Shown here: positions 16,263-42,134 of the stretch, in pieces
Layout of the letters: each line of letters begins with the position of its first letter
Position numbering within the stretch: position 1 is the first letter of the stretch
NCBI GenBank assembly: GCA_020619395.1
Contig: GCA_020619395.1_4860.1
Length of the DNA: 64,000 bases
Strand: one strand, 5' to 3'
From: a phage
Position numbers and translations under genes: made by a program
Notes under the pieces: generated by a model
What the model was told of the DNA's origin: nothing
The model's input: the letters and a program-made list of their open reading frames with translations, nothing else
Database searches by the model: none

Positions 16263-17499
16263 CCATTGCAGTGGTCATAACGTTCGAGAAGCCGGAAGAG
16301 ATATCCGCAGCGATTGCCCGTGGCTCTTCTGCTTTGTGTGCAGAGGCGCACGCCGCACAACAGTCTACGTGACCTTGCTGACATAAGATGGGTCGGCGGA
16401 GTCGAACAACTTTACCAAATTGTGTTTTCAAATACTCTTCGGTGAGTTGGGTAACTTTACCGTTAATCATCGCGTTCATGCCAACATAACGCTTGTAGTT
16501 ATACTGGTTAATTACAAGTGCATGTGTCAGTTTTGTCCCGCAATCACCAGGTACGATTTTGTGGTTCTGGAAGATCATCTGGATGATACGTACTTGCTCC
16601 CCGCCCTTGGCAGTTTCTGCACCACGCATGAAGGAACCTTCTCGCGTATCATTGAACTTCTCTACCAGATACTTCATCCCGGTCTGATCAACTTCCATCA
16701 GACTCGTTGGGATTAAGGTAAAATCTGCACCTTCTTTAAAAGCGGTCTGAATACCATACATCAGCATCAGCTTACGGCGACGCATACGCGCTTTAGGAGA
16801 GCTGTAGAACTCAACGGACTGGTCGCCACTCAACCACTCTTTATCAAGTTCGTCGAGAGCTTTTTCAATCATAACGATAACCGCAGGGTTATCCAGTTCG
16901 TCTTTGTGCTTCAACAGCAACGCATCTCGTACCTTATACGCGTCAGGATGCGTTGTAAGGCTTCTAATAGTTCCTGTTGGGGCAATCCCACGACACAACG
17001 GAGCAAGCTCGTGTAGACCCCCTACAAAGCGTCCTATCATGTACGGTCGAATCGCGTCTTCGTTGTCTGGATCGGTGTCATCATATTCCACACAACGCTC
17101 ATACATCTCTTTACGGTAGGCTAGCGGGTCACGAGACTCTGCCAGATACGGGAGACGGGTACCGAAAGCGTAGTAGATAGCAATCCAGTTAAAGACATAG
17201 CGACCCACGGTAGTCGGAATGGGACCAGCTAAACCTGGGTACATCTCAGGACGCAATTCAAACTGCTCTTCCGGCACGAACAGCTCTTCATCTTTTTTGC
17301 ACCCTTCAATCGGCACCCACTTGGTTTCTTCGTTTTCCCAGTAGTGGGGTAAGCCGTCAATATAGTTCAGGTCGTATTGCTCAGGCGGCTCACCTTTTTC
17401 ATTAAAGATAGCCACGTTGAAAACCGCAATACGCCACACCAGTCTACGCCAAGCTTCTGCTTTACACGCAGCAACCAGATAATCAATCTTGTTCATCAT
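16201..17499 (-). CDS. hypothetical protein with a C-terminal Cys cluster
   Basis: 432-aa ORF; CQQGHVDCCAAC cysteine cluster near the C-terminus suggests metal binding; no further assignment. Confidence 0.55.
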   Translation of the reverse strand: MMNKIDYLVAACKAEAWRRLVWRIAVFNVAIFNEKGEPPEQYDLNYIDGLPHYWENEETKWVPIEGCKKDEELFVPEEQFELRPEMYPGLAGPIPTTVGRYVFNWIAIYYAFGTRLPYLAESRDPLAYRKEMYERCVEYDDTDPDNEDAIRPYMIGRFVGGLHELAPLCRGIAPTGTIRSLTTHPDAYKVRDALLLKHKDELDNPAVIVMIEKALDELDKEWLSGDQSVEFYSSPKARMRRRKLMLMYGIQTAFKEGADFTLIPTSLMEVDQTGMKYLVEKFNDTREGSFMRGAETAKGGEQVRIIQMIFQNHKIVPGDCGTKLTHALVINQYNYKRYVGMNAMINGKVTQLTEEYLKTQFGKVVRLRRPILCQQGHVDCCAACASAHKAEEPRAIAADISSGFSNVMTTAMGAMHGRETVVKEYIPKFHIT

Positions 17500-18367
17500 C
17501 TACCTCCGCGTCCCCACTAGCGTATATGACTTTCAACGCTTCCAATCCTTTCCGCAAGATTTCTCCAGGCGGGACGTTGTCGACGTTCAACAAGGCAAGG
17601 TTCTTTTCTAAGTCACCGTAAGCCCCGTCAAACTCCGCATGAGGAATAATCGATAAACCTACCGCATACATCGTCAGCAAATCAATTTCGCTAATGTCTT
17701 CTACGCGAAACTCTAACGACTGCTGCACTACCGTTAAGTCTGGCTCAGCAGGCAGATTCATAAAGACAAACGCTGACGGGTTCTCAGGGAACAACCGCAA
17801 GTAAGTGACGATACGCTCTTGGCGCACATCATCGCTGTTTCGTTTCTGGCTTTCCAACGACTCTGCTGCTAAGAAGTTTTCCATCACGGTAAGCACGCGT
17901 GGGCTGACAACAGTAATCAGGTCTTCAAAGTGCAGGTTTTCGTCACCGTAAACATAACGACACATGTTCTCCAGGATATACTCTGGTGTCTCACCAGAGG
18001 AGACGATCCCGTAAAGAGCGTCGCTGTCTTCGAACTCTTCGAAGGCTTCCAACACACCGTGAAGGATACGTACGGTTTCTTTCGGTTTCTGGAAGACGAT
18101 TTGTGGATTAAGTCCGATACCGAGGCGGTTGCCTAATCCAACCGCTACCTTCACGATAATGGATTCCAGACGAACAGTTTCGTCCGCAGGGTCAGACAAC
18201 GGGTTGCTATAAACATCGGATAACGCCACATCGTAACCGTAATCCATACCGAGCGTCACTAAATCTAGCATCGGTGCTGCACGACCTTCGTGACGGTTGA
18301 CTGTCAATACAGCCGCATAGTCGGTATAAATATCAATCATGGCTCTGTTCCATAGTGAAAAGGGCAT
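17483..18367 (-). CDS. hypothetical protein
   Basis: 294-aa ORF followed by a terminator. Confidence 0.55.
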   Translation of the reverse strand: MPFSLWNRAMIDIYTDYAAVLTVNRHEGRAAPMLDLVTLGMDYGYDVALSDVYSNPLSDPADETVRLESIIVKVAVGLGNRLGIGLNPQIVFQKPKETVRILHGVLEAFEEFEDSDALYGIVSSGETPEYILENMCRYVYGDENLHFEDLITVVSPRVLTVMENFLAAESLESQKRNSDDVRQERIVTYLRLFPENPSAFVFMNLPAEPDLTVVQQSLEFRVEDISEIDLLTMYAVGLSIIPHAEFDGAYGDLEKNLALLNVDNVPPGEILRKGLEALKVIYASGDAEVDDEQD

Positions 18368-18380
18368 TCATACCAAGGCG

Positions 18381-18418
18381 AATAAAAAAAGAAAACGGGG
18401 CCGAAGCCCCGAATTTCT
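18381..18418 (-). terminator. rho-independent terminator after CDS 18420..18791
   Basis: Hairpin 18395-18410 (cggggc / cgaa / gccccg) with + strand A-run 18381-18394. Confidence 0.55.
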
Positions 18419-18419
18419 A

Positions 18420-18791
18420 TTAATGTCCCGTCAGATCTTTCTCCAGCTCTTTTAGCGCACGTTCACCTGCCACCTGTTCGCCGGCTTTGGCGATAATCGC
18501 TTTGCGACGACGGATGTTGTCGAGCATCAGGAGTATCTGCCAGCGGGGGCGGTCGAGGAACTCGTCTATCGACATCCGGTAGTTTTCACCGACCTCTTCA
18601 CGTAAGTAAGTGGCGTACCAGATATCGTAAAGACTACCGTATACCGGGTTTTCAAAATCCGACAACCCTACCTGATGGTCGCCGGTATTAAGAGCCAGTG
18701 TACGGTCATACGCTTCCAGAAGCTCGTTATGGGCTTCCTGATACGTAATAGGACGTGTGCTACGCTGCTTGAAGAGAGAGGTGGTATCCAT
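18420..18791 (-). CDS. hypothetical protein
   Basis: 123-aa ORF with its own terminator. Confidence 0.5.
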   Translation of the reverse strand: MDTTSLFKQRSTRPITYQEAHNELLEAYDRTLALNTGDHQVGLSDFENPVYGSLYDIWYATYLREEVGENYRMSIDEFLDRPRWQILLMLDNIRRRKAIIAKAGEQVAGERALKELEKDLTGH

Positions 18792-18835
18792 CTTGAGCGT
18801 TGTAATGATTTGCTCGGACGGAACGTCTTCCTGGT

Positions 18836-20806
18836 CTAGCCAATATCGGCGTATTGATCCAGCAAGAATTTCTGAATCTCGGACACCACTCGAGAGAGCA
18901 CGAAAAAAACCCTGTCCGGTGAGATGGTAACAATACCACGATACAGACCGTCTTTCTCGCCGTGTGTTTTACCGCACGCCGGGCAGCGTTTACCCATGTA
19001 ACCGAATACCGCTAAACGTGTACGTTCGTTGTATTCAGCAATTGCGTTTTCAAACTGGCCAACGTAGATACGGTCGGAAGACAGCTCTTCTAGCATCTCA
19101 ACGATTTTCGCTGTGTCGGTTTCAGTTTGTGGGATAACCTGCATTTCACCGTTTACTTCACGTTGCTCGTTAACAGTGATAGATTTCACCATGTGAGCAT
19201 AGCGCGTTAAGCGACGGGCTTCCGCAGTTAAACGCATATGGGATTCACGTTCACGCTCGGTAGCAAATTCAGACAGCGCTGCCGTAGTTGACGCGTTAAC
19301 GTCTTCAATCCACTTCTCAGTGGAGTCAAAGAAGCTACCCAGGGTAGAACGGCCAAATTCAACACGCACGTCGTGGTATTCAAATACCGAGGATGGGTCA
19401 ACCTGATGCGCCGCGATATATTCGCGCTGTTCAGCAATAGAAATCACAGGACGCTCAGTACCGCGTTGACGTGCCCACAGTTGTTTCTGCAGGTCGCTAA
19501 ACAGACCGGAACCGAAACGGATACAACGCGCGATATTCAGCTTCACATCTTCCTGCTGAGTACAACCGTCCTCACCGCACATCAGCGTCCATGGAATACC
19601 AGACGGCCATTTCGCTTGCAGCGGACCCAGAATTACCAGCCAGTAGTCAGCCAGATCAATGGTATCCAACAGCACAGTACGCAGATCGTTACCCGCGCAG
19701 TCGATGGTTGCTTCAGTAACAAACTGAAGTGCGAATTCAACCATGTGACGCATGTACACACCAGAAGACGACGACAGCATCAAACCGTAGGTCTGCATAC
19801 CGATGGTCGCAGTTTCCAGTGTGAGGCGCATGTCGAAGTCACAAAGGTCACGTTCATGCGGTGCGCGGAAGCCCACGTAGATACCTGTGGCCGGCAACCA
19901 AACCATATTCGGAATACCCGACTTACGTACACGGCGCAAAGCAGCCAGCGCGCCAGTGTGCATATTGTCACGCGGTGCAATAGCACCAGATGCCTTACCG
20001 TCCGGCAACATCACACGCTGTTCCCAAGCGGTGTCGCCACGGTCCAGTGCACCCGCGAATGCTGGTACGCCGTCCTGTAGACGTGGCGGGGTCATGTTCA
20101 AAGCACGATAGATGTCGTCGTATACCTGTTGCTGTTCAGGGCTTTCGAATAGCAGCCGGCCGTCTTTCGGTGAACGTTTAATATTACCGAGGAACTTTTG
20201 CAGGGAGTCTGCAATGATGTTAGGGTCTTGTTTCAGACCAATCAACATCTTCGACTGTGTCAGAATACGATCAGCTTCGTCTTCACCCATTTCGGCAGTT
20301 TCAGCTAAATGGGTATTACCGAAGTTAATCTCACGCACCTGTTGTTGTTCCGGAACCTTCGGTGCTGCATCTTCCATTTCTTTTACAGCCGGCTGGGCCG
20401 GTGCAACCGCTTCCGGAGCTTTTGGCTGCGGAGCAGGTTCTACCGCAGGCGCTTTCTCTACTACCGGTTCCGGGGCACGATGTAGGTGCTCCTGCACCTG
20501 TTCAGCAAAAGTCTGAGGTGCCGGTGGTACAGGCGCAGCAGGTTCAGGCAACGCCTCTTCTACAAACGTCGGACGCTCAAGCTTAGGCTCAGGACGATGA
20601 TAGTGTTGGTGATAAACTTCTTCTGCACGGGCAAAAGAAAAATCGGGATTGGCTTGTTTAATAGCCATGATGATTGCATCCGAGGTCGCGTCATCAGGCA
20701 CGGTCGGAAGAATCATCTCTTGTTGGGTAGCAGCCGCCACAGGGGCTGGCTGGTCGGGATTAGGGCGACGGGCATTACCCGGACGCTGATCTTGGATCTC
20801 AGACAT
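18836..20806 (-). CDS. hypothetical protein with Pro/Ala-rich linker and C-terminal CxxC pair
   Basis: 656-aa ORF; about 90-aa PEPxxP-rich low-complexity region near the N-terminus; C-terminal CPACGKTHGEKDG. Confidence 0.6.
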   Translation of the reverse strand: MSEIQDQRPGNARRPNPDQPAPVAAATQQEMILPTVPDDATSDAIIMAIKQANPDFSFARAEEVYHQHYHRPEPKLERPTFVEEALPEPAAPVPPAPQTFAEQVQEHLHRAPEPVVEKAPAVEPAPQPKAPEAVAPAQPAVKEMEDAAPKVPEQQQVREINFGNTHLAETAEMGEDEADRILTQSKMLIGLKQDPNIIADSLQKFLGNIKRSPKDGRLLFESPEQQQVYDDIYRALNMTPPRLQDGVPAFAGALDRGDTAWEQRVMLPDGKASGAIAPRDNMHTGALAALRRVRKSGIPNMVWLPATGIYVGFRAPHERDLCDFDMRLTLETATIGMQTYGLMLSSSSGVYMRHMVEFALQFVTEATIDCAGNDLRTVLLDTIDLADYWLVILGPLQAKWPSGIPWTLMCGEDGCTQQEDVKLNIARCIRFGSGLFSDLQKQLWARQRGTERPVISIAEQREYIAAHQVDPSSVFEYHDVRVEFGRSTLGSFFDSTEKWIEDVNASTTAALSEFATERERESHMRLTAEARRLTRYAHMVKSITVNEQREVNGEMQVIPQTETDTAKIVEMLEELSSDRIYVGQFENAIAEYNERTRLAVFGYMGKRCPACGKTHGEKDGLYRGIVTISPDRVFFVLSRVVSEIQKFLLDQYADIG

Positions 20807-24541: not shown

Positions 24542-26647
24542 TTACAACTCAATTACCACAGCGGCTCCTAGGTCATCGTACAACGATGCCGGGATTTTGT
24601 ACTCGGTATAAAAACCAACGCGATCGATATTCCCCTGCTGTCCTTCAAACAACAACATCGGAATTGCCGAGCGCAAACTAATGAGCGTGTTGTGATCGAC
24701 AAACCGTTTCCCGGTGGCATTAGTAGAATCCTCACTGTCAAATCCTACTGCCGGGAACGGATTGGTTGGTGACTCTACACGAGATATCGCCAACATAATC
24801 GCAATGTGCGTCATCGGTATACCGCTCAGCTTACGCTGGATGTACTTAAACGTATCCATCAACGCATAAGTACACTGTTTCTCTGTAGCACCACCCATTT
24901 CAACCAACGTTACCGGTTTCACACGACCTTGTTTCTTGTTCAACTTCACAGTCGAGGCTGTGTTGATGATTTCCACAATGTCTTCGTTCTTATCGGCTGC
25001 GATTGAACGTAGCTTGGTTTCTAACCCTGCCACGAATTCTGCCATCGATTCAGAACGGTTGGTGTAGACCAGTACCGGGTGTTTCGGGTTCCATCCTTTC
25101 AAAGGAATCTGAACCGTCTTCTTCTCGATACGAATGTTCGCACGTTGTTTCAAGAAGTAATGCAAGAACGGTTTAGAGAAGTTCCCACAAACACCCATTC
25201 GCACATCGATAGAATCTGCAGCGATGATTTGCCCATCTTCTAAACGACGCTGGAATGTCAAGTCGGTGATTTCCGGCAATGCTGTTTCATCGATTGCATC
25301 GAGATCTTCATGATACGCAATCTGGCTCAGCTCCGAATAAACTTTGTCGGTAACGACCAACTCGTATTCTGACCAATTACCACGCTGTGGTTTTGGTAGC
25401 AAGCACAACCCTTTCAGAGAGTTATGTTTGTATTCGGTCATGTACTCACGCATTCTCGGCGTGAGTACCAGGTTGAGCAGATAACGCAAGAAGTCAAGGT
25501 GCTTGGTAGAGAGAATTCCCTGTGTACCCTTTTCCGAGATGGACGTGGACGCCAGGTGACCTGGTGACGTACCTTCAGAGAGGTTATAAATCAAATCCCC
25601 CATACAGGTCGCACAGATGGACTGATTCGCCATCTCTTTACAGGTCATGGCACTACGGAAGACCAGCGGTTTGCCAACCAGGTCTGCGTATCCGCCTTTC
25701 TCAAATCTCAACCACGGACCATTATCACCTTCTAAACGATAACGCATCCCCACCATCGCTTTATAGGCACGCTCATCCAGCTGCGTATCCTTAAACGTGT
25801 AGCGGTGTGCGTGAGTTGTACCGCAGTCGTCGTACGTGAAATACATCAGTACGTTTGCTGCCAACTGCAGTTTACGTGAGGCGTATTCTGCTTCGGCAAT
25901 CTTGTCAGTGTTGTACAAGTGGGAACGTGAAGTTGCACCGGATTCTTTCAAACGCGAAATAACCGAGTGCATTCCGGTAAAGAAGCCTTCCCACACCTGA
26001 TTGGTGTATACACGTGAGTCAATTTCTGACGTTTTACCACGCACGAAGGCTTGCAGTACCTGGTTCATCTTCACAGTACCGTCCAGTACCGACATCACGA
26101 CCGGGTTATACCGTAGCGCAGGGTCTTTGAAGATTTTCTCGATAAGCTTGTACGCTTCTTCAACCATATCCCGACCATCTTCATCGTAGCCAGTAGGATA
26201 TTGCACTTCCCACTGACGGATGAGTTCGAAGTTCGGATGGTCGTAGATCTCCATCATCGTATCAAAGTCGATTGTCGTACAATAGGACAGCAAGTTCTTC
26301 ACTGTCATGTTGAACGCATCGGCGTAGACATGTTGACTCAGGATATAACGCGTTTCAGCAAGGTCGACGCCTGCTTTACGGGCCAGTACCGCTGCTTCCG
26401 ACATAAAGTCCAGATGCAGGTCATCTGTTGCTACCTGACCTGGACGATACGCCATGGTCGATGGAGTGGGCACCTGCGGATACAGACGCGACACACCCCA
26501 ATACGGCCAGCTGAGTTTGATGTGGCGACTAGACATTTCCAACGACTTACCATCGTCGAATGTCACGTAATAACGCCCGCGTAGTTTCCACACCTGATCA
26601 GAGTTAAGCATACGCAAATCACGTACGTGTACAGAACGACCCGCCAT
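24542..26647 (-). CDS. multisubunit RNA polymerase beta-prime-like, C-terminal part (candidate)
   Basis: 701-aa ORF directly downstream of the beta-like gene; SEKGTQGILSTKH resembles the beta-prime trigger-loop motif E-P-GTQ-L-T-M-R-T-F-H (recalled); the rest is unassigned. Confidence 0.45.
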   Translation of the reverse strand: MAGRSVHVRDLRMLNSDQVWKLRGRYYVTFDDGKSLEMSSRHIKLSWPYWGVSRLYPQVPTPSTMAYRPGQVATDDLHLDFMSEAAVLARKAGVDLAETRYILSQHVYADAFNMTVKNLLSYCTTIDFDTMMEIYDHPNFELIRQWEVQYPTGYDEDGRDMVEEAYKLIEKIFKDPALRYNPVVMSVLDGTVKMNQVLQAFVRGKTSEIDSRVYTNQVWEGFFTGMHSVISRLKESGATSRSHLYNTDKIAEAEYASRKLQLAANVLMYFTYDDCGTTHAHRYTFKDTQLDERAYKAMVGMRYRLEGDNGPWLRFEKGGYADLVGKPLVFRSAMTCKEMANQSICATCMGDLIYNLSEGTSPGHLASTSISEKGTQGILSTKHLDFLRYLLNLVLTPRMREYMTEYKHNSLKGLCLLPKPQRGNWSEYELVVTDKVYSELSQIAYHEDLDAIDETALPEITDLTFQRRLEDGQIIAADSIDVRMGVCGNFSKPFLHYFLKQRANIRIEKKTVQIPLKGWNPKHPVLVYTNRSESMAEFVAGLETKLRSIAADKNEDIVEIINTASTVKLNKKQGRVKPVTLVEMGGATEKQCTYALMDTFKYIQRKLSGIPMTHIAIMLAISRVESPTNPFPAVGFDSEDSTNATGKRFVDHNTLISLRSAIPMLLFEGQQGNIDRVGFYTEYKIPASLYDDLGAAVVIEL

Positions 26648-28884
26648 TATTTATCCTCCCGAATTGGACGCACTAATTCAAAACCTTCACAGCGATGGAT
26701 GTTACGTATCATCCTGTCAATCTGCGAATCTCCCATTGGCAGTTTCTTACGATCGACCAGCACCCCCGGATTGGTTGGTGTTGGCGAGTTATACAGCCCC
26801 GTTACGATCGCACGGTGTACCGCAGGGTTATTAGCGCGGTCATGAGTTTCGGGGAAGTTGCCCGGACCAAAGCCGTCGGTAAGACGCTGCTCGGAAGGAC
26901 CACCCCACTTCAACCCTTTCAGGTTAATCGGATATGAACCACGTCCTTGGTTGGATGCATCAATACAACCCAAATAGTTCGTGTACATCGACGAGATACT
27001 GGAGAACTCACGACCGGTTTTATCCAGGCGCAGAGTCTCTACCATGCCGACGTAGAACTGGTTCTTCGTCCACTCTTTCTCACCCTGATAGTTAGTAATC
27101 AGTAGCTTAGACTTGCGTGGTGCATACTCGCCTAGAGCACGGCAGATTTCTACCTGGGTGGCATTCAATTCGTGGGGAAGCCAGATACGAATCGTGAAGT
27201 CGTAAATCTCTTTAAAGAGTTCCAGACGTGACTCAGTATCTGGGTGACTGGCATTGAGATAGAATGTCCAGCGTGGGTTATAGCGATCGATATAGTCCAT
27301 CAGGATTTCCCAGGCTTCATCAACCTGGTTGGCAGCAAGTAATGGTTTCAACCGCATCTTCAACTGCTCGGATGCAGCAGACCAATACATGTGGAACAGC
27401 GCAGCATAAGTCGAACGACGAATTACGGCGTTCATGGAACGAATGACATGCACACGTTCTCCGAACTCGTTAATCGGCATTTCTTCATCAGGCCGCACTG
27501 CACCCACGATACCTTTTGTACCTGAACGGTCGGTGATTTTCGATGAGACGGTAACTGGGATTGGATAACGTACCACGATGCGTATCGTGTAACTACCAAT
27601 TGGGTCCCAGAGACCACGCTGAACCGGCTGCGCCAGTTTGTTTAACACGTTCTTATCAGCAGAACGGTTATACTCGCCTTTGCGCATGGCTTCATCGTAT
27701 TCACGACCAATCTCTTCACGGAAGTCGTTATAGACTTCATACGTCTCAGAACAGAACGCCTTGTCAAGAATCTCAAACGCTTTCGGTGACCAGACAATAT
27801 TCTTGTCCTTGGACATCGCAAAATAGAACCGCACGATATCATTGTAAAAACGTTTCAAAGCGTTCGCGTAGTGATCTAACTCGCGTTTGTTCTCTTCGGT
27901 ACATGCGATATTGTTAACACCACGATCGCATTTGGTTTCGTCCCGCCATACCTGAATATCAACGACACGAGAACCAGTACGTTCCATCTTTTCAAAGTCG
28001 CCAGCCTGACGCGCTTTGTAATGCTCAGGGTCAGCATCAACATACTCACAACGGTCGAAGTGCGGAGAGATATGTTGTGTTTCACCTACGTGCGAGTCAA
28101 TGGCTGCCCATAGCTTATCGAAACGGCGCGCGGCAATAACCAACCCATCATCACGAATTGCCTGTCCTTTATTGGGCAGGTACTGTGGTCGACGAACGCC
28201 ATCAATACCCGTTGTCCCATACGTATCAAGCAGGTACTCGTCGTCGCGCAAGGTAAAGTCGATTGCACGCAAACCATAAGCGTGCATCGCTTTCGCTGCA
28301 GTTTCGGAGATGGTGTACGAGTCCTCGATAATGTCCGGGTGCGACATTGTCACAGTGTGCAGGTTGACCCCATCGACAAACTCACCGTCTTTCTGTGCCG
28401 GCAGTACGGTAAGCATTTCATCTTTTTCCAGGTGCTGCGTCTGCCCGCGCAGCAACGCCTGAAGTTTCCCAGTAGCCTCTTTCTTAGACGAGAAAATGTT
28501 ATCGTGGTTGGTGTAATACTTAATATCGATTACATCAATCATCACTTTGCGCTGGTTGGTTAAATCTGCGCGCGTGAAGAAGATAACATGCTGGAGCGGT
28601 TCGTGATCCCCTTCACGACCATAGCGTGCAAAAACAGCTGCACGAGTAACACCTTCTTTGGTTGTGTAACTGCACACGGTACCACTGTCTTCCACGATAT
28701 CGTTAAAACAATAATCGTGGTAGTTCACATCAGCGCCGGTAAAATGGATAGTCGGATCTGGATTGTCCAGTGGTACCGCCGACTTCATATGTCCACCCAC
28801 CATTGAGGCACGTGCCCCAGATACGCCAGTGATATTCACCTCACGGTCAGCAACGCTTGACATGAGTTCGACTGGTGTTTTCAT
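26647..28884 (-). CDS. multisubunit RNA polymerase beta-like subunit (C-terminal catalytic part)
   Basis: 745-aa ORF; ITDRSGTKGIVGAVRPDEEMPINEFGERVHVIRSMNAV lines up with the bacterial beta motif GDK-x-AGRHGNKGV-x(5-6)-EDMP-x(3-5)-G-x-x-VD-I-V-LNPLGV (recalled from E. coli RpoB). Confidence 0.7.
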   Translation of the reverse strand: MKTPVELMSSVADREVNITGVSGARASMVGGHMKSAVPLDNPDPTIHFTGADVNYHDYCFNDIVEDSGTVCSYTTKEGVTRAAVFARYGREGDHEPLQHVIFFTRADLTNQRKVMIDVIDIKYYTNHDNIFSSKKEATGKLQALLRGQTQHLEKDEMLTVLPAQKDGEFVDGVNLHTVTMSHPDIIEDSYTISETAAKAMHAYGLRAIDFTLRDDEYLLDTYGTTGIDGVRRPQYLPNKGQAIRDDGLVIAARRFDKLWAAIDSHVGETQHISPHFDRCEYVDADPEHYKARQAGDFEKMERTGSRVVDIQVWRDETKCDRGVNNIACTEENKRELDHYANALKRFYNDIVRFYFAMSKDKNIVWSPKAFEILDKAFCSETYEVYNDFREEIGREYDEAMRKGEYNRSADKNVLNKLAQPVQRGLWDPIGSYTIRIVVRYPIPVTVSSKITDRSGTKGIVGAVRPDEEMPINEFGERVHVIRSMNAVIRRSTYAALFHMYWSAASEQLKMRLKPLLAANQVDEAWEILMDYIDRYNPRWTFYLNASHPDTESRLELFKEIYDFTIRIWLPHELNATQVEICRALGEYAPRKSKLLITNYQGEKEWTKNQFYVGMVETLRLDKTGREFSSISSMYTNYLGCIDASNQGRGSYPINLKGLKWGGPSEQRLTDGFGPGNFPETHDRANNPAVHRAIVTGLYNSPTPTNPGVLVDRKKLPMGDSQIDRMIRNIHRCEGFELVRPIREDK

Positions 28885-28950: not shown

Positions 28951-29274
28951 ATGCTAGATAAATTTGCTACCTTATCCGAAATAATACCTTCGCCTGATTC
29001 GACCAAGTATAAGGTGTTGCATGACTATACAGACTTCCTTCGCAAACACCCAGATACTACAGAAGAAGTTGTTGACCCAAAATATGCCTACCCAGAGGTA
29101 CACAGTTTCTACGCGTACTGTCGTCTCAAACAGTACGATAATAGTATTATTTATCCGATGATGTTAATGAACGGAATTTCTACTCCGTTTGATTTCACGC
29201 CAGAGATAAGAACCTTATTGGTTCCTAGTGTCGGCGTGGTAAGTAACATCTTATCGACTATCGTAGAATCTTGA
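28951..29274 (+). CDS. small hypothetical protein
   Basis: 107-aa ORF with AAGGAGAG Shine-Dalgarno 7 nt upstream, followed by a terminator. Confidence 0.55.
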   Translation: MLDKFATLSEIIPSPDSTKYKVLHDYTDFLRKHPDTTEEVVDPKYAYPEVHSFYAYCRLKQYDNSIIYPMMLMNGISTPFDFTPEIRTLLVPSVGVVSNILSTIVES

Positions 29275-29306
29275 AAAAAAGAAGGGACGCCCAGTCCCTT
29301 CTTTCT
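29274..29306. terminator. bidirectional rho-independent terminator
   Basis: Hairpin 29281-29301 (gaagggac / gccca / gtcccttc) with A-run 29274-29280 and T-rich 29302-29305. Confidence 0.6.
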
Positions 29307-29311
29307 AACGC

Positions 29312-30679
29312 TTAACGTAAATTAGCTGATGAGAATGGTAGGTTGCCTAAACTGCTGCTACTTCCGCCACCTAAACCACCCAGACCACCTAACACGTCAC
29401 TACTCCCTCCTAAGAGGTTGGTGCTACCGCCGCCCAACTGCGTGCTACCCCCCAAGAGATTATTACTACTTCCCAGCAAACCAGAACCCAGACCACTTTC
29501 TTTCGTCACCGCATTACCACGCAGCGCCTCACCGAGAGACAGTTCTTTAATTGTCCCTTTCGGTAAATGGCCGTTGTTCTCACGCAGCGCTTCCTGAATC
29601 TTCGGTGCTAACGCATTGAAGCTATTAGCTGAAGACGCCTGTTGCGCTTTCTTCGCACGGAAATAGTTTACCGGATCGTTGAGATCAAGATTTTCCTGCG
29701 GAGCTTGTTGAGAAGCTAAAGCAACGACCGGCTTTGTGCCGGCAGGTGTACGCCCGATACGGAAATCCGTTGCGGTGGTGTCTGTTGCCTGATCGGTGCG
29801 TGGGCCGGTATTATACGGCAGAGTTTGGATAACGTTATCATAAACGCTCATGTTATCCAGTTGGCCAATCCATTCTTCTTCTAACGGACGCAGTGGAGTG
29901 TGGTCACGCAGACCACGAACCACTTGATTGTAGTTGGTCACGTATTGTGCCCAACCGCGTGCCAAAGAACCGAAGTACGGACGCGGATCGTTAGAACCAG
30001 TAACCGAAGGATACCAACCAAACACTGCAGTTAGCAGGTTAAAGATAATGACCTTATCCTGCTTACGCTGGAGCTTGGCACCGAAGAATGTTGCCGTACC
30101 ATCCAGTGACTCTTCTTCAAACATGTGTTTGTAGTTCGCCACACGGATATATTTGATACCTTCAATGGTCATATCGCTGGAGATGAAGATACTGGTGATC
30201 TTTGTCTTTTTATCTTCTTCCAGCAACCCGTAAACGTAGTTCTTCACTGCGTGCCAGCTCTGAACCAGTTTCTTATCCATCGTTGGATCTTTCAGGTCAG
30301 CACAAACCACATCGCTTAAAAACTTCTTGTACGCTGCCAGACGGATATTTTTTCCTTCGGCTGCTGTTTCCAAAATCGCATCGATTAGCTCGAAGCTTTT
30401 CAGGAAGAGGTTCGCGTTGATGGCTTTCTTCAGGAAACGAATCGTTCCAGATTCGCCAGCCAGCACCGATTCACACAGCGGGTGGAACGCATGACATTCA
30501 CTACCTTCGTCATCTTCCAACCCACGCTTAATCATCGCTGCAGTTGGAAGCACCAAGCGGCGCTTCACTTTGTTGTAGGTGAACATTGCCGGATGACCAT
30601 CATCGATAGTCAGCATGTCACCTTCGAATCCGTATCCGAGCGAGGTCAGAAACGAACGGTAGAATTCAATCAATTTCAT
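29312..30679 (-). CDS. hypothetical protein with Gly/Leu/Ser-rich C-terminal tail
   Basis: 455-aa ORF; last ~60 aa are LGSGLLGSSNNLLGGSTQLGGGSTNLLGGSSDVLGGLGGLGGG... low-complexity repeats. Confidence 0.6.
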   Translation of the reverse strand: MKLIEFYRSFLTSLGYGFEGDMLTIDDGHPAMFTYNKVKRRLVLPTAAMIKRGLEDDEGSECHAFHPLCESVLAGESGTIRFLKKAINANLFLKSFELIDAILETAAEGKNIRLAAYKKFLSDVVCADLKDPTMDKKLVQSWHAVKNYVYGLLEEDKKTKITSIFISSDMTIEGIKYIRVANYKHMFEEESLDGTATFFGAKLQRKQDKVIIFNLLTAVFGWYPSVTGSNDPRPYFGSLARGWAQYVTNYNQVVRGLRDHTPLRPLEEEWIGQLDNMSVYDNVIQTLPYNTGPRTDQATDTTATDFRIGRTPAGTKPVVALASQQAPQENLDLNDPVNYFRAKKAQQASSANSFNALAPKIQEALRENNGHLPKGTIKELSLGEALRGNAVTKESGLGSGLLGSSNNLLGGSTQLGGGSTNLLGGSSDVLGGLGGLGGGSSSSLGNLPFSSANLR

Positions 30680-30691
30680 GGTTAATAATCC

Positions 30692-32392
30692 TTAATCAAT
30701 GAGACCGTTGCCGAGTCCGTTTCCGCCTATACCGCCTAAGCCACCACCCAGGTCAAGACCTCCAAGAGGATCTAAGCCACCTGTGTTAGTTGGAATGTTA
30801 GATAGCATTCGACCCCGGCCTTGGCCTTTCTCGAATTCTGTATAACCTTCTTCCACGGCTTTCAACAGCGTTGCGGTGTTCTGTGCCAGCTCACCAACGT
30901 ATTTGAGATCGGTGGTGTTGCCGGTATGGAGACGGAATTGCATAAACGACGCGTAGGTGTAATATTCCAGCGGTTCGTCGTCGACACGGATTTCAATACG
31001 AGTAACGGTCCCCAACAATGCGGTGACCAGCATGTGGCAGCGAATATGGTTATGTTTAGTAACCTGAACCATCGCTTCTTTCATGTTCTGCAAGAAACGA
31101 CGACCTAACGCAGCAGGTAACTGATGGTGCGTGATGCTGCTGACTGAGTTAGGAATAACTTCCAGCGTAGGCTCTATCATGATATCTGTGTTGCGGTTAT
31201 CAAAGACAAAGCTCACTTCACCAATCAGGTTACGTGACATAATCGGCCCGATAGACATAGCCAGATCATACGCAACTAGACTACCCTGCGTGGAGAAGCC
31301 ATTACGTCCAATCCAGTGGTCGGTTTGGTTAACCAGCCCTGCACCCAACCCACGGCGACTTGCCAGCGCCAGCGATTCACGGATACATTCATCCAACCGC
31401 ATTGGGTTGACAATCGCATTACGCAAATCAGCCAAACGGAACGTCGCCTTACTGGTTGCTTTCCAGCCGCCAGATACATCAGACATCCCGTTCTGGAGTG
31501 CTTGACGCATCGCAGCAATCAGTTCGTGGTTGCTGTAGTTACGGATAACACCACGTTGCTTCAATTCAGATTCAACGCCGATGGAGTTATTACCTGCAAA
31601 GAAGCTTTCCACGCTACCGAGTTCGGTATCTACCCCAGAGCTTGCCAGATACGCATTACTGATGGCAGATACGTAGTTTTCTGGACGCTGGAGTTGGGAT
31701 ACCATCAACTGTGGTGCAGAGCTACTGGTTGCGGATAGCACAGAGTCGCTCGTTGGGACGAACTTCTCACCGCTATTCATTTCAATACGTTTTACCATAT
31801 CCGCCGCTTTCGCGATCGAAATGATATCTACCGTACTTTCCGTTTGACCTTCAACAGACAGCGCTTTCGATAAAACGTAGTTATCCAGTAGACGGAATGA
31901 GTCTGGGTTCAATGTTTTGCCGCCCAGGGCATCGTGTGTATACGTTGCCTGTAAGCCGTAGATGTCGTTAATGTACAACACCATATCGTCAGGCAGCAAG
32001 CTACCCAGGCTGGTTTCTGCCTGACTGGTATAACCGGATACGATGTATTGCGTTTCCTGAGTGCGTGTTGCATTCAGAGGTTTAGCAATAAACACCGCCA
32101 CGAAGTTAAAGATACCGGTATCACGTGATTCCCATTGGAACTGTACAGGACGATTGTCATCATCGGACACGTTGATGAATGGACGCTCAAAACCATTCTG
32201 GGTGCCATCGAAGCCCACGATGGCAGATAATGCTTCTTGATACTGCTGTGTTCCCACAGCTTTTTCCCCGCCCAGTTCAACCGCTGCTGCTAAGTCATCC
32301 AGTGCACCCGTCGATGCGTTAAAGCCGATGCGGCGACGAACTTGCTCTGGAACATCGTAGACCGGATACATCAGTAGATTTACAAGCTGCAT
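30692..32392 (-). CDS. hypothetical protein with Gly-rich C-terminal tail
   Basis: 566-aa ORF ending ...TGGLDPLGGLDLGGGLGGIGGNGLGNGLID, similar in style to the tail of 29312..30679. Confidence 0.6.
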   Translation of the reverse strand: MQLVNLLMYPVYDVPEQVRRRIGFNASTGALDDLAAAVELGGEKAVGTQQYQEALSAIVGFDGTQNGFERPFINVSDDDNRPVQFQWESRDTGIFNFVAVFIAKPLNATRTQETQYIVSGYTSQAETSLGSLLPDDMVLYINDIYGLQATYTHDALGGKTLNPDSFRLLDNYVLSKALSVEGQTESTVDIISIAKAADMVKRIEMNSGEKFVPTSDSVLSATSSSAPQLMVSQLQRPENYVSAISNAYLASSGVDTELGSVESFFAGNNSIGVESELKQRGVIRNYSNHELIAAMRQALQNGMSDVSGGWKATSKATFRLADLRNAIVNPMRLDECIRESLALASRRGLGAGLVNQTDHWIGRNGFSTQGSLVAYDLAMSIGPIMSRNLIGEVSFVFDNRNTDIMIEPTLEVIPNSVSSITHHQLPAALGRRFLQNMKEAMVQVTKHNHIRCHMLVTALLGTVTRIEIRVDDEPLEYYTYASFMQFRLHTGNTTDLKYVGELAQNTATLLKAVEEGYTEFEKGQGRGRMLSNIPTNTGGLDPLGGLDLGGGLGGIGGNGLGNGLID

Positions 32393-32404: not shown

Positions 32405-34039
32405 TTAAGAATTAAACCATTCAACTTCTTCTAACTTGCGACGTGCATTCAACACCATAAACTCCGCCAGGCTATTGTGCAGTGACAAGTGAGGTATATA
32501 GTTTGGCTGATCCGTCTCACACTTCAGCAGCGCAGCTGCTTCTGGTGTAGCCCTGAGATGGAACAGATACGGGTTGATGTGATCCTTGTGTAACAAGGTC
32601 AATGATTCCCGTGGTGTAGATTGCGGTTCGAGATTACGCGGGTTGCGATACTCCTGAAGATAATATCTATCTAAATCTGCTTTGAGTTCAGATCGAATTG
32701 GGTCGGCTGCATAACCGGCAGACATCTCAGAACGCACCATATTGCAACTTAACAGTTGCGCAACGTCATACATTCCATAATTGAGATAAGTTGCCTGTGC
32801 CAACGCCATACCGTAGCGAAACGCTTCTGGTCCACATTCAGTATACGTCTTATAATGCGCGCTACGATGGAGTGCTAATGCGACTAACCATTCGTGCAAC
32901 GTATAGACAGGACCGTCATGTGTTGCCAGTTGCGAATCAATCAATAACTTAACATCTGCTGGAGCGGCATTATCCAGACGCATTGTTTTCAAGAAAGAGC
33001 GGTATTCTTTAAATACGTACTCGGTACGGACGTATTCTTTCATCTGTGCAGGAGAACGTGCCTGCACCAAATCCATGGCGTTTATCTTACCCTTTTCGCC
33101 ATTGAATACCACACTTTCCGGATGCGCTTTTAACAGCACCGGCTGGTTAGAGATTTTGTTTGCAAAACCTGTTTCAATCTCTTGTTTAACCAGAAAATAC
33201 ATGCCGGTGACGATATTGTTGTTAACCATGATTTCAACCGGTAATTCACCACCGACTTCACGGACAGCCAACAATTTAATAATAGCATACGCCAGGATAT
33301 AATCTTCCATCATATCCGTGCCATAGCCCCGCACCGTAGCCAGTACCGACAAACTGGTGCTGTTCGTACCTTTGTTTGCCAGTTCTTTTTCTACCTTTTC
33401 CATCACTGTCTGTAGGAACCCACGCAGTTTCGGAATAGCAGGTAAAGACATGACTTCCGTGTCTTGAAGCATCTCCAGACAGTATGTCAGATTGTACACC
33501 ATTTTCCGGTGTGTTTCGATTGGCAAGTTCTTACCTATCGGGAACGTCCCCATGGTGAGGAACACCGGAATATACGGTTTAATCATCAGGACCAGTATCA
33601 ACAACTCGTAATAGTCCGGACGAATGTACGTCATCGCTTCCGGATAATTACTGTTCATTTCATCGTGCGTATCTTCCATGTTCTGCGGAATCCACAGCTT
33701 ATCGATGGGATACAGCTTACGATACACTTCGGCCTTGTGGAACTTCGCAATCGTCTGCACAATCTTCGGCATGTGCTTACGCTGCGTTTCCGTCGATTCG
33801 TTTGCCAGCTCGTCCAGCATCAGATACGCCATGAACAGTTCATCTTGTTCGTCTGGCGTTAAATAATCCCACACGCGTTGTAATTCCATGAAGAGAATGT
33901 TGTCGCGTGCAATCTGTTTACCTTTAACAGTGATGTAGTCGGGTGCGTTGTTATCCTTCCGATAACGTAAGCCAATAAATGTGACCTCTTGACCATGATG
34001 CTCGATTGTCATCCGGTCTTTAATCTTCATAATTTTCAT
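32405..34039 (-). CDS. hypothetical protein
   Basis: 544-aa ORF; promoter-like motif 26-40 bp upstream (34073-34089). Confidence 0.6.
   Translation of the reverse strand: MKIMKIKDRMTIEHHGQEVTFIGLRYRKDNNAPDYITVKGKQIARDNILFMELQRVWDYLTPDEQDELFMAYLMLDELANESTETQRKHMPKIVQTIAKFHKAEVYRKLYPIDKLWIPQNMEDTHDEMNSNYPEAMTYIRPDYYELLILVLMIKPYIPVFLTMGTFPIGKNLPIETHRKMVYNLTYCLEMLQDTEVMSLPAIPKLRGFLQTVMEKVEKELANKGTNSTSLSVLATVRGYGTDMMEDYILAYAIIKLLAVREVGGELPVEIMVNNNIVTGMYFLVKQEIETGFANKISNQPVLLKAHPESVVFNGEKGKINAMDLVQARSPAQMKEYVRTEYVFKEYRSFLKTMRLDNAAPADVKLLIDSQLATHDGPVYTLHEWLVALALHRSAHYKTYTECGPEAFRYGMALAQATYLNYGMYDVAQLLSCNMVRSEMSAGYAADPIRSELKADLDRYYLQEYRNPRNLEPQSTPRESLTLLHKDHINPYLFHLRATPEAAALLKCETDQPNYIPHLSLHNSLAEFMVLNARRKLEEVEWFNS
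32657..32673. promoter_or_regulatory. intragenic copy of the AGATAATATCTATCT-type motif
   Basis: gaagataatatctatct inside the 3' end of CDS 32405..34039, about 265 bp upstream of the start of 30692..32392. Confidence 0.25.
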
Positions 34040-34174: not shown

Positions 34175-34873
34175 TTAGAGGAATTCGTCGTAAGAATCAG
34201 TGGTTGCTGGAGGTGCAGATTGTTGCTGCTGTTGATAACCGCCGCCGCTACGCTGACCACCACCCTGGCCACCACCGTATCCACCACGACCGAAGCTACC
34301 ACCACCTTGCTGGAATTCACGCGGCTTATATTTCTCTTCCAGGTTCTGTAAGAACTTCTCGAAGTTAGTGATAAACGCACGTGCGCAGCGCTCGGCAAGT
34401 TCTAAATCAGAAACCTGCTGGCCGTCGCGGAAAATACGGAAACCTTTCGGGTAGGAGAAGTAGAACTTCTTCTGGCGGGCACCAACGCCCTGGATTTCAC
34501 CGGCAATAGCGATGAACGGTAACAGGTTGTCTTCACGGCCAACAATCAGACTAACGGGCGGTTTGTTGCCGTTTTCGTTAGTAAACTTCAGCATACTCTT
34601 TTCGCTCTTACGCAGACAATCCTGCAGAGCTTCGATAATGGTACGGCAAACCGTAATCGGCGCAGAGAAATAGAGACCTTCGCCCTTACCAAAGGAGTAG
34701 CTAAACTTCATAGTTTCAACATCACCGTTGAAATCATTCGGTTCGATGTTGAGTTTACGCGTACGGTTTTGCTGATCCGGTTCGGTCTGCGGGTAAAGCC
34801 ATTTGTCTTTGAAAATTTCTTGGTTAATCATCATTTCATCCTTTTCGGAAAAGCAGTCTAGTGGTTCACACAT
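34175..34873 (-). CDS. SSB-like protein (candidate single-stranded DNA-binding protein)
   Basis: 232-aa ORF; C-terminal Gly/Gln-rich linker GGGSFGRGGYGGGQGGGQRSGGGYQQQQQ ending in an acidic/hydrophobic tip DSYDEFL, like SSB C-terminal tails; OB-fold not verifiable by eye. Confidence 0.35.
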   Translation of the reverse strand: MCEPLDCFSEKDEMMINQEIFKDKWLYPQTEPDQQNRTRKLNIEPNDFNGDVETMKFSYSFGKGEGLYFSAPITVCRTIIEALQDCLRKSEKSMLKFTNENGNKPPVSLIVGREDNLLPFIAIAGEIQGVGARQKKFYFSYPKGFRIFRDGQQVSDLELAERCARAFITNFEKFLQNLEEKYKPREFQQGGGSFGRGGYGGGQGGGQRSGGGYQQQQQSAPPATTDSYDEFL

Positions 34874-40280: not shown

Positions 40281-42134
40281 TTACAGTTTGAAGTTGCTCA
40301 GAGACACGCCCAGACCGAAATCGGAACCGCTTGCAGACAGGCCGTTGCCAGACAGCGTGAAGTCTTCCCCACCGTTGTTGAAGAACAGAGAGGTCGCCAT
40401 CGTGTTGTAGGCATTTACACCAGTCATAGACCAGGTGCAGTTGTTACGGACGAAGTCCAGCAGGCATTTACCGAAGATCGGGTTGATAGCCATATCCAGA
40501 GATTCACCGGTAGCTTGCGGTGCTTTGGATGCGAACAGAGAAGCGGCCAGTTTCAGCATGTAGATACGCTGTTGACGCTCGTTCAGTTCACGGTGGCTGT
40601 AGGACTGTGCGTTCAGGTAGCTATAGACGTCGTTCGCGTTATCACCCAGTTTGGTAACAACGGAAATCAGGTCCATATCCTGGAAGCTACGTTTCTGTGC
40701 AGTACCGGTGTAAACACCGGAAACAGTCGGTACGGCTGCTTTCACGATGTGGCTGCAATGGATGGTACCATTGAAGGCATCGCCCAGCTGTGCTTTCAGT
40801 GCAGAAGCAAATACTGCAGTGAAGCTGGTCGCTGCAACAACTTCGCCGTTCTGATCACGCGGGGACATGGAATTCAGAATAGCGAGCAGCTGTTTCAGAG
40901 AGTTGTCGTAACCGACCGCAATTTCAGACAGCATAGTAGACAGACCACCCAGACCGTTACCGGCACGATGGCTAACTACCAGTGCTGCTTCACGCGGTGC
41001 GAACATATCCAGGCAACCTTCGATAGCTTCACGGCTACCGTCGATTTTGGATACATCAGGACGAGCGTCAGCACCCCAGGACAGGTATTCTGCCACACGG
41101 GAGAACTTGCGATCTTGTTTGTTCAGACGTTTCACAAACAGGTCACGCCAGCCACCGATTGCCGCGATTTCTGCAAATGCAGCCAGCAGCAGCAGTTGAC
41201 GTTCATACGGTGCCATTGCACCTTCAGTTTGAGAATCGACCAGACTTACTACGATTTCAGCCTGCAGCTGTTTCAGGTCGTAGACGCCGTTAACGACAGG
41301 CTTCTGACCGGTGAAACGCATGTTGACGAAACCAGTACCGGATACACGCGGATACACCTGTACCTGATTGGTGTCCAGCAGAGTCGGAGTGGCGTCGGAT
41401 ACGTTGCTTGGGCTGTGCTCAACGGTGATTGCGAAATCAGCACGTTGTGCGTGGCCGTTAGCATCCACAACCGCACCATCTTCCAGCGGCATTACTGCAG
41501 CCTGATAACGGTCATGCTTACGCAGGTTCAGCGTACCCAGGTAGCCTGCGATACGACCGAAGATGCCCATCATCATCTGACCCATCAGAGTACGTGCCCA
41601 CTCAGCATCCAGAACTTTACCCAGGTCTGGTACGGAGTTGATGATCATGAAGTTCGCATTGGTCAGACCATGCGCTTCCATGATGTTTTTCTGTACTACT
41701 GCCAGCACGTCTTTGTTGAACAGTTCAGTGATGGTGTAGTAGTCTTCCTGGCCGTTGTTGGTAGTTTCTTTCAGACGCAGAGACTGACCGCGTTCAAAGA
41801 AGATAATACCGTACAGCCAGTGGCCCTGCCATTGGCCTGCGACATACGCCGCGGAACCCATTTCGTTACCCACGCCGGCGATGGTGCCCCAGCGGAACGC
41901 GTTGAGGTATTCGTTGCTTTTCTTCAGCTCGTCCAGGAGGTTGACGAAGTGCATTGCATAGGTGCTGATGTTGCGGATGCCAAATGCGTTATCGAATTGG
42001 CTGACAGTAGAAGTACCCGGCACAGCAGTTTGCACTTTTACAGTCTCGTTGCCCAGACCGCCCAGTGGTGCGGTGTCTTGAGTCTGAGTGTTGTTCTGCT
42101 GAGCGTTGTTGTTAGAGTCAACGATTTTTACCAT
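40281..42134 (-). CDS. abundant-protein candidate: phage nucleus shell protein (chimallin-like); alternatively a major virion protein
   Basis: 617-aa ORF with no enzymatic motifs, own promoter-like motif and terminator; sits immediately upstream of the beta-prime N gene, the arrangement recalled for phiKZ shell protein gp54 next to nvRNAP gp55. Size fits chimallin (about 600-700 aa). Inference only. Confidence 0.4.
   Translation of the reverse strand: MVKIVDSNNNAQQNNTQTQDTAPLGGLGNETVKVQTAVPGTSTVSQFDNAFGIRNISTYAMHFVNLLDELKKSNEYLNAFRWGTIAGVGNEMGSAAYVAGQWQGHWLYGIIFFERGQSLRLKETTNNGQEDYYTITELFNKDVLAVVQKNIMEAHGLTNANFMIINSVPDLGKVLDAEWARTLMGQMMMGIFGRIAGYLGTLNLRKHDRYQAAVMPLEDGAVVDANGHAQRADFAITVEHSPSNVSDATPTLLDTNQVQVYPRVSGTGFVNMRFTGQKPVVNGVYDLKQLQAEIVVSLVDSQTEGAMAPYERQLLLLAAFAEIAAIGGWRDLFVKRLNKQDRKFSRVAEYLSWGADARPDVSKIDGSREAIEGCLDMFAPREAALVVSHRAGNGLGGLSTMLSEIAVGYDNSLKQLLAILNSMSPRDQNGEVVAATSFTAVFASALKAQLGDAFNGTIHCSHIVKAAVPTVSGVYTGTAQKRSFQDMDLISVVTKLGDNANDVYSYLNAQSYSHRELNERQQRIYMLKLAASLFASKAPQATGESLDMAINPIFGKCLLDFVRNNCTWSMTGVNAYNTMATSLFFNNGGEDFTLSGNGLSASGSDFGLGVSLSNFKL

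Follow-up and report, generated by a model that had tools for sequence, protein, structure and literature searches.

Co-varying low-complexity tails on an Imp1/PicA orthologue and its gp70-family neighbour in an SPN3US-type jumbo phage

The natural place to start is with the Pseudomonas phages, in which Imp1/PicA (phiKZ gp69, PhiPA3 gp63, 201phi2-1 gp125) is an essential importer that gives one or two puncta at the shell of the phage nucleus, the puncta and the role in selective import having been described for phiKZ, PhiPA3 and 201phi2-1 only (PMC11087766; 10.1101/2024.03.27.586873). Its genomic neighbours matter too. In phiKZ, gp67 (ChmC/Imp6), an RNA-binding shell protein with a Whirly fold, binds Imp1 (PMC11077065; 10.1101/2024.03.27.586873), and the disordered tail of ChmC is needed for condensates with RNA, a precedent from the same locus (PMC11077065); gp68 is a subunit of the non-virion RNA polymerase, and gp70 counts among the listed nuclear proteins (10.1101/2024.03.27.586873). 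The PhiPA3 homologues of ChmC, Imp1 and gp70 (gp61, gp63 and gp64) all localise to the nuclear shell and were undetected by mass spectrometry in virion proteomes (PMC10643120). Here, we consider the counterparts of Imp1 and gp70 in a 64,000-nucleotide stretch of phage DNA (contig GCA_020619395.1_4860.1 of GenBank assembly GCA_020619395.1; the whole stretch is 'the window' below), where two adjacent minus-strand open reading frames (ORFs), 12 nt apart, encode proteins of 566 aa (30692-32392) and 455 aa (29312-30679). They correspond to gp31 and gp32 of SPN3US, which is among the phages with an experimentally demonstrated nucleus-like compartment (PMC13282480). Both proteins end in a disordered, low-complexity tail, and across related phages the chemistry of one tail varies with that of the other. 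The reading that we favour, and on which we are evenly balanced, is that these are paired sticker-and-spacer tails whose weak, multivalent contacts would operate at transport sites on the shell.

Identity and setting of the two genes

At the DNA level, the region matches Escherichia phage vB_EcoM_Lh1B and the SPFM Salmonella phages at 99.7% identity and SPN3US itself at 98.7%; it is present in 41 phage records, and the gp31 and gp32 genes are found at 95% identity or better in 34 phage records. The window is, to judge from these relatives, derived from an SPN3US-type, nucleus-forming jumbo phage. Full-length family matches in PHROG pair its proteins with phiKZ gp66 to gp70: phrog_3229 is common to a 278-aa protein and gp66, phrog_3284 to a 232-aa protein and gp67, phrog_3209 to a 544-aa protein and gp68, phrog_3141 to the 566-aa protein (E 6.6e-157) and gp69 (2.7e-179), and phrog_3520 to the 455-aa protein and gp70. 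Direct BLASTP comparison also connects the 455-aa protein with phiKZ gp70 (E 6e-13, 27% identity) and the 544-aa protein with gp68 (E 1e-13). It returned nothing significant between the 566-aa protein and phiKZ gp69, and for this reason the link between gp31 and gp69 is drawn through the PHROG profile and synteny.

The order of the genes is the same in both phages. In SPN3US numbering, the block runs gp27 (SbcD), gp28, gp29, gp30, gp31, gp32, gp33 (small, and on the opposite strand) and gp34/gp35 (RNA polymerase beta and beta'), matching phiKZ gp65 (SbcD), gp66, gp67, gp68, gp69, gp70, gp71-73 and gp74. This conserved replication-transcription block, which can be read as SbcD / gp66 / ChmC / gp68 / Imp1 / gp70 / RNA polymerase beta, recurs in the same order in 201phi2-1, PhiPA3, Goslar, Ea35-70, PCH45, RSL2, Xoo-sp14 and eight more chimalliviruses. 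Within it, gp31 sits between the gp68-like and gp70-like genes, the setting expected of the Imp1 family, and a putative gene for the major shell protein, ChmA, is found in the same genome. By family profile and exact gene order, the 566-aa protein is this phage's Imp1/PicA orthologue; by BLASTP, phrog_3520 and synteny, the 455-aa protein is its gp70/gp64, a second shell-associated protein. The operon that carries them also holds the gp68-like RNA polymerase subunit and, just upstream, ChmC/Imp6.

How closely do the two proteins resemble their named relatives? Besides belonging to one full-length family and occupying one gene position, gp31 and phiKZ gp69 are of similar size (566 and 557 aa) and share a disordered C-terminal end, although the tail of gp69 is rich in Gln, Pro and Asn and ends in FSFQVL, whereas that of gp31 is a Gly/Leu repeat ending in GLID; function, too, has been tested for the Pseudomonas phage proteins only. 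Similarly, gp32 has the gene position and the layout of phiKZ gp70 and PhiPA3 gp64, namely a folded domain of ~280 aa and, after it, an extended C-terminus that is disordered and of low complexity, but their tails are made of Met, Gln and Pro and that of gp32 of Gly, Leu and Ser. Pfam (E 0.01 or better) recognised no family in either protein, RTX and collagen-like repeats included. Calcium-binding RTX-type repeats (GGxGxDxUx) were also considered directly and rejected, given the missing Pfam match and a Gly/Asp spacing in the gp31 tail that departs from the nonapeptide.

Two disordered tails

In gp31, a folded core (residues 1-535; 30788-32392, minus strand) closes in a conserved SNIPT motif and is followed by the tail (residues 536-566; 30695-30787, minus strand), a nearly uncharged Gly/Leu sticker-and-spacer segment delimited by composition, model confidence, entropy and mixed codon usage. 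It reads NTGGLDPLGGLDLGGGLGGIGGNGLGNGLID, 31 residues of which 45% are Gly, 29% Leu or Ile and 10% charged, with no Ser. The gp32 protein is built in three parts. Its folded N-terminal domain (residues 1-283; 29831-30679, minus strand) is the sole part conserved across the Chimalliviridae, and a disordered linker (residues 284-394; 29498-29830, minus strand) joins it to the tail (residues 395-455; 29315-29497, minus strand). This second tail, SGLGSGLLGSSNNLLGGSTQLGGGSTNLLGGSSDVLGGLGGLGGGSSSSLGNLPFSSANLR, is 61 residues long (31% Gly, 25% Leu, Ile, Met or Val, 3% charged) and carries nine L(L)G motifs set 3-8 residues apart on a spacer of Gly, Ser, Asn and Thr, compared with about five motifs in the gp31 tail. 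The sticker in the window is Leu, the two tails holding 0 and 1 Phe. The linker of gp32 deserves a comment of its own, because confidence scores, DSSP assignments and the alignment all pick out three short, conserved helices or motifs within it (~335-347, 358-366 and 381-385), near DPVNYFRAKKAQQ, APKIQEALRENNG and SLGEALRG, which are conserved across the clade; F339, S380, L381 and G397 are conserved columns of the family alignment, and the helical segments may be binding motifs in their own right.

These tails are far from chance. The window has 56 non-overlapping ORFs of 100 aa or more, and in a scan of their 30-residue segments the lowest entropies belong to the tails of gp29 (1.95 bits), gp32 (2.13 bits) and gp31 (2.18 bits), against a median per-ORF minimum of 3.23 bits. 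The original prediction, which had pointed to LGG/GGS-type tails of 30-60 residues on two neighbouring genes, was correct, but 'GGS-type' describes the 455-aa protein only, the gp31 tail being free of Ser; it was also an understatement, because three out of four consecutive genes carry such tails. The fourth, gp30, encodes the 544-aa homologue of the phiKZ gp68 polymerase subunit (32405-34039, minus strand), has no low-complexity tail and serves as an internal control.

AlphaFold2 models made with family alignments predict that the tails are disordered. The predicted local distance difference test (pLDDT) score stays near 35 over residues 531-565 of gp31 and at 31-37 in the gp32 tail (about 35 over residues 385-454), compared with 80-97 in the cores, which are modelled confidently over residues 1-530 of gp31 and 1-283 of gp32. 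Residues 285-454 of gp32 lie mostly below 50, with the short helices rising to 60-70 in between.

The tails are real translated segments. Comparing the gp32 tail in the window, SPN3US and MET_P1_082_240, we counted five substitutions, none of which alters an amino acid, and the loss, in frame, of a single Ser codon. The Gly, Leu and Ser residues are each spelled by three to five different codons, and Tandem Repeats Finder detects no more than a 9-nt, 2.6-copy trace; DNA slippage or a tandem repeat as the origin of the tails was rejected on these grounds, and simplicity is thus maintained at the protein level and is no product of recent slippage.

The same observations dispose of the suspicion, raised with the original prediction, that frameshifts or read-through had created the tails: that possibility was checked and came out negative, the differences being synonymous or in frame and the genes recurring in the 34 records already mentioned, with tails that are identical across dozens of independent genomes; the homologues compared for this check all end in a tail. 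Nor did the idea of a fibre or tape-measure function survive. Some fibre proteins do have glycine-rich ends, and nothing more specific than this speaks for a virion role here. The genes lie in a non-virion replication-transcription block and have phiKZ gp69 and gp70 as their PHROG kin, no structural Pfam family, structural PHROG category or RTX repeat was matched, and the PhiPA3 homologues are located at the shell and missing from virion proteomes (PMC10643120). A virion structural protein or a sequencing artefact is, in our estimation, barely credible as an explanation.

Tail chemistry across the family

To look beyond the SPN3US group, we assembled the block of four genes from 35 more genomes and contigs and ran phmmer with the N-terminal domain of gp32 against 1.84 billion cluster representatives. 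This gave 332 relatives, whose alignments cover residues 1 to ~280 in nearly every case, and among them 144 full-length representatives. After residue 285, a 30-residue segment below 3.0 bits is found in 136 of these 144, and one below 2.6 bits in 88, compared with five and none, respectively, within the N-terminal domain. A low-complexity tail is, judging by these sequences, nearly universal in the gp70 family, and its chemistry is lineage-specific. The SPN3US-like phages use Gly/Leu/Ser, whereas a metagenomic sister group has Phe-Gly repeats (GFG, SFGG, QFG) and the CR5/Derbicus group, with its relatives, has NNPF or NPFG repeats. Other relatives carry SLFG/GLFG, SMFG or an almost perfect MFGAPQQAS decamer. 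The tails of phiKZ, PhiPA3, Ea35-70 and AH04 are made of Met/Gln/Pro, those of PCH45, RSL2, Xoo-sp14, 2050HW and PhiEaH1 are rich in Arg/Asp dipeptides, and that of LucasX is Gly/Trp/Arg. Ten of the 144 have four or more FG dipeptides, mostly 8-11 residues apart. In Imp1, a low-complexity tail follows the conserved SNIPT motif throughout the SPN3US supergroup, and the phiKZ group has a Gln/Pro tail. The gp68 C-termini that we compared have no such tail at all. One low-complexity tail in these phages seems to have misled annotation: the gp70 homologue of Pseudomonas phage Churi (OM718002.1; H88) is annotated as a 'Med15 subunit of mediator complex protein', which is almost certainly spurious and driven by the Gln/Met-rich sequence.

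The two tails change together. Within the SPN3US supergroup, a Phe-type gp70 tail goes with a Phe-type Imp1 tail and a Leu-type with a Leu-type, and we found no discordant lineage. For example, an Imp1 tail reading SFGSFGSFG…GVFGAFGE is accompanied by GFG/SFGG repeats in gp70, and one reading GFSFG…GFKL by NNPF repeats. A neighbour-joining tree of gp68 does not unite the Phe-type lineages in a single clade: they comprise the basal lineages, the CR5 group and, nested beside phiEaH2, the VALL22-like phages, and they are separated by Leu-type lineages, which make up the crown. At least two or three concerted switches are thus required. The agreement extends to exact motifs, with GNSLLD in both tails of ChrisDB-like phages, NPFG in both tails of one metagenomic contig (L061), and LFG accompanied by [SM]MFG in two others (L060 and L059).

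Permutation tests point the same way. With one representative for each of 11 SPN3US-clade lineages, two tails from one genome have more 3-mers and 4-mers in common than do permuted pairs (p≈0.018 and 0.008), and across 20 lineages the composition profiles of the final 35 residues of Imp1 and the final 60 of gp70 show a correlation of 0.46 within genomes and 0.26 in permuted pairs (p≈5e-5), these tests treating lineages as exchangeable without correcting for kinship. The controls in the 20-lineage test gave no excess, either for the gp68 C-terminus (p=0.08 and 0.12) or for the ChmC tail (p=0.94 and 0.62). Over 31 genomes, Spearman coefficients between the two tails are 0.52 for Phe, 0.61 for Leu and 0.78 for charged residues. 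We regard the coupling of the two chemistries as well supported by these comparisons, short of proof.

Might all of this be drift? Low-complexity sequence could simply be tolerated, having at most a generic role as a solubility aid or entropic spacer, and a genome-wide mutational or compositional bias could then produce the co-variation. Composition certainly differs wildly between clades, as it would in weakly constrained sequence, the gp68 control itself shows a faint, non-significant same-genome trend, and phiKZ gp70 is not among the reported essential genes (PMC12571901). Set against this are the retention of a tail in all but eight of the family representatives, strain differences that are purely synonymous with no repeat at the DNA level, exact motifs common to two proteins of one genome that base composition leaves unexplained, and a ChmC tail that, in the very same genomes, does not follow the trend. 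We consider drift quite improbable.

Both gene families were known already, and in this locus a condensate-type disordered tail had been described for ChmC only. What appears to be new is that the tail chemistry of the gp70 family varies by lineage and that the Imp1 tail of the same genome follows it. The papers on Imp1 and PicA, the Imp1 study in its preprint form, do not discuss the tails, and our literature search turned up no phage-nucleus protein tied to FG (Phe-Gly) or low-complexity repeats except ChmC and no earlier report of the pattern in the searchable literature, an earlier mention not being fully excluded.

Possible roles at the nuclear shell and the wider locus

What, then, might the tails be for? 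Each protein consists of a folded body and a disordered, almost uncharged C-terminal tail, along which hydrophobic stickers (here Leu, in the form of LG or LLG) recur every 3-8 residues on a spacer of Gly, Ser and Asn. In the scheme that we favour, the gp31 and gp32 tails would be a matched pair engaging in weak, multivalent contacts of like with like; they would bind one another, or both would bind a single partner that recognises the motif, and such contacts would gather and hold both proteins at the few transport sites, visible as puncta, on the chimallin shell. The function of the tails, the cohesive and multivalent nature of the contacts and their action at the shell are things that we infer from sequence, and the co-variation hints that the two tails work together there. 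This lends indirect support to the shared interaction that had been proposed for them at the outset. The proposal that they belong to condensate-forming proteins is helped, also indirectly, by the neighbouring ChmC homologue, which has a disordered tail of the condensate-driving kind (PMC11077065). ChmC (PhiPA3 gp61) is comparable in part: it is shell-associated, is encoded in the same gene block and has a C-terminal tail that is disordered and of low complexity, but this tail is rich in Asn, Gly, Gln, Tyr and Arg with an acidic tip, is similar in all lineages and does not co-vary with the other two, whereas those of gp31 and gp32 are aliphatic and nearly uncharged. Neither of the latter has the ChmC-type Asn/Gly stretch and acidic Ser/Asp/Glu tip, both of which are present in the neighbouring 232-aa protein.

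Several observations weigh against our scheme. Co-expressed in Escherichia coli, phiKZ gp70 and Imp1 did not co-purify (10.1101/2024.03.27.586873); weak multivalent contacts might, of course, be lost in a pull-down despite existing. The list of phiKZ knock-down phenotypes runs from 065 to 069 and resumes at 075 (PMC12571901), and its lack of an entry for 070 means that phiKZ gp70 may be dispensable. The valency per chain is low, with tails of just 31 and 61 residues. The Imp1 C-termini of Goslar, Ea35-70 and PCH45 carry no low-complexity tail and the gp70 tail is Arg/Asp-rich or Met/Gln-rich in some clades, and as a result no single tail chemistry is universal. To these must be added the uncorrected kinship in the permutation tests and the small number of independent concerted switches, probably only ~3-6.

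A different way of using a flexible tail is known from chimallin itself, which assembles through flexibly linked N- and C-terminal segments (NTS, CTS1 and CTS2) that dock on neighbouring protomers (PMC9365700). The tails of gp31 and gp32 could likewise be Gly-rich leashes, each bearing a docking peptide at its end (hydrophobic-x-hydrophobic-COOH) that plugs a pocket of the chimallin lattice in imitation of chimallin's own tethered C-terminal segments, and so anchors Imp1 and gp70. A candidate docking partner is the window's putative major nuclear-shell protein, ChmA, at 40281-42134 on the minus strand (SPN3US gp22), which occupies the position of phiKZ gp54 immediately upstream of a gp55-like RNA polymerase gene. 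Searches for a sequence match came back empty (phmmer against the PDB, the Pfam Chimallin family, and a hidden Markov model of the clade against phiKZ gp54), and the putative assignment depends on synteny and on a transitive link: the proteins at the orthologous position in two related contigs (L062 and L063) match Pfam PF25677 Chimallin and align with the window's protein at the C-terminus. This putative ChmA has PLGGLG near its N-terminus, where Phe-type lineages have PSFGG, and SDFGLGVSLSNFKL at its C-terminus, and ChmA C-termini of the clade (…SDFGLG…NFKL) resemble the tails in a general way. The Imp1 tips of relatives (…SSDFDNFKL, …TGFKL, …GGLKF, …NNFKF) are of much the same kind, Imp1 and gp70 tips agree within genomes (LGLL with LGLL in PhiPA3, and elsewhere FNF with FSF, FSF with FTF, TFNY with SFNY), and both tails score ~23-25 in local alignments with ChmA C-termini, compared with ~12 for the gp68 control. 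Yet the ChmA C-terminus shows no same-genome excess with either tail (p=0.43 and 0.33), the one weak signal being that between the ChmA N-terminus and Imp1 (p=0.04, uncorrected), and in the window the three tips differ (NFKL in ChmA, GLID in gp31, ANLR in gp32). Chimallin's segments are, moreover, single ordered peptides, whereas the repeats here, numbering up to about nine in gp70 tails, would be needless in a mere leash. We regard docking of this sort as possible and rather doubtful.

The analogy that comes most readily to mind is with the FG nucleoporins, for example the GLFG and SLFG repeats of Nup98 and the engineered GLLG//L repeats. Many tails could condense into a small, cohesive phase at an opening in the shell and add selectivity as FG domains do, in which case the tails of Imp1 and gp70 would be an FG-nucleoporin counterpart, a 'sticker code' co-evolved lineage by lineage that forms a convergent, pore-like barrier in a bacterial virus. 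The layout is certainly similar, with disorder and charge depletion in both window tails and hydrophobic motifs set apart, as in FG domains, by spacers of Gly, Ser, Asn, Thr and Gln (~8-12 residues). Tails in relatives contain literal SLFG/GLFG, SMFG, MFGAPQQ and NPFG repeats 8-11 residues apart. The proteins are placed at the edge of a compartment that holds DNA, and both are shell-associated in PhiPA3 (PMC10643120), Imp1 being the factor that licenses import. Furthermore, engineered Leu-only GLLG//L repeats can give selective, FG-like phases, but a GLLG repeat that lacks extra hydrophobicity does not phase-separate at 10 uM (PMC9918544). Other differences are substantial. There is no homology, the window tails, some 10-fold shorter than Nup FG domains, have neither repeated Phe-Gly motifs nor the high valency that comes with tens of motifs along hundreds of residues, their sticker is Leu rather than Phe, and many other clades have charged Arg/Asp, Met/Gln or Gln/Asn tails instead. 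To our knowledge, no transport receptors are known in phages. The selectivity of Imp1 has been traced to surfaces on its folded body (10.1101/2024.03.27.586873; PMC11087766), Imp1 puncta have shown no pore, and the failed co-purification and the absence of 070 from the knock-down list (PMC12571901) count here as well. A nucleoporin-like barrier, and with it the sticker code as a convergent pore, strikes us as unlikely. Our preference stays with the more modest scheme of paired tails that would hold the two proteins at transport sites.

The rest of the locus can be described briefly, beginning with the ChmC/Imp6 homologue gp29, the 232-aa protein introduced above (34175-34873, minus strand; 232 aa is the longest ORF, and the SPN3US annotation is a 654-nt version). 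SPN3US gp29 is essential and is a non-virion protein (PMC5105663). Its tail in the window (nt 34178-34318), the lowest-entropy segment of all, is rich in Gly, Gln, Tyr and Arg, reads SFGRGGYGGGQGGGQRSGGGYQQQQ… and ends in DSYDEFL; its chemistry is nearly constant across lineages and its architecture agrees with that described for ChmC (PMC11077065). The acidic-hydrophobic tip is reminiscent of the C-terminal tips of single-stranded DNA-binding proteins.

Downstream of gp32 lies gp33, a small plus-strand gene of 107 aa (28951-29274; phrog_3455), which comes next after the gp70 homologue in nearly all chimalliviruses that we fetched; one record labels a phrog_3455 gene 'putative baseplate wedge protein', and the genomic context makes this label look wrong. 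Between the convergent gp32 and gp33 genes, directly after the gp32 stop, we read from the sequence a hairpin with an 11-bp stem followed by a T-run (AAAGAAGGGAC-TGGGC-GTCCCTTCTTT; 29278-29304). It looks like a bidirectional intrinsic terminator closing the operon, and a terminator consensus scan did not list it; consensus scans for sigma-70-type promoters and for terminators yielded nothing informative. The beta subunit of the non-virion RNA polymerase (26647-28884, minus strand; a phiKZ gp71-73 homologue with Pfam RNA_pol_Rpb2_6 and phrog_3295 at 1.6e-268) marks the downstream end of the block.

A few observations fall outside the two genes or concern the records in which their relatives are found. 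Low-complexity segments elsewhere in the window are confined to two minus-strand genes: that at 18836-20806 encodes a 656-aa protein with an internal stretch rich in Pro, Ala, Glu and Lys (APEPVVEKAPAVEPAPQPKAPEAVAPAQPA), and that at 179-1438 encodes an internal head protein with an acidic stretch. In the LR5359xx records (SPFM1, 5-10, 12, 14, 15 and 20), both genes appear scrambled, with short stretches out of order, as shown by tblastn matches that fall into several pieces and by chimeric proteins (P0029, P0030, P0033, P0034, P0063-65, P0075 and P0076), which indicates assembly errors in those deposits. Finally, in a related metagenomic phage (L063), the gene after the RNA polymerase pair (16195-18927) encodes 910 aa with a weak LAGLIDADG match, a sign that the helicase region may hold an insertion of the homing-endonuclease or intein type.

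For the phage nucleus, the central problem is how proteins get across a closed chimallin shell. Imp1/PicA acts as the licensing factor for import, and a pore, a flippase and an unfoldase are all candidates for the physical route. Matched, lineage-specific tails on Imp1 and its neighbour, which in some lineages are literally of the FG type, offer a concrete handle on this problem. They also give gp70 a role that can be tested, and they flag mis-annotations such as 'Med15' to which its low-complexity tail has given rise. If the tails should prove irrelevant, that too would be useful, since models of import would be narrowed to the folded surfaces of Imp1.

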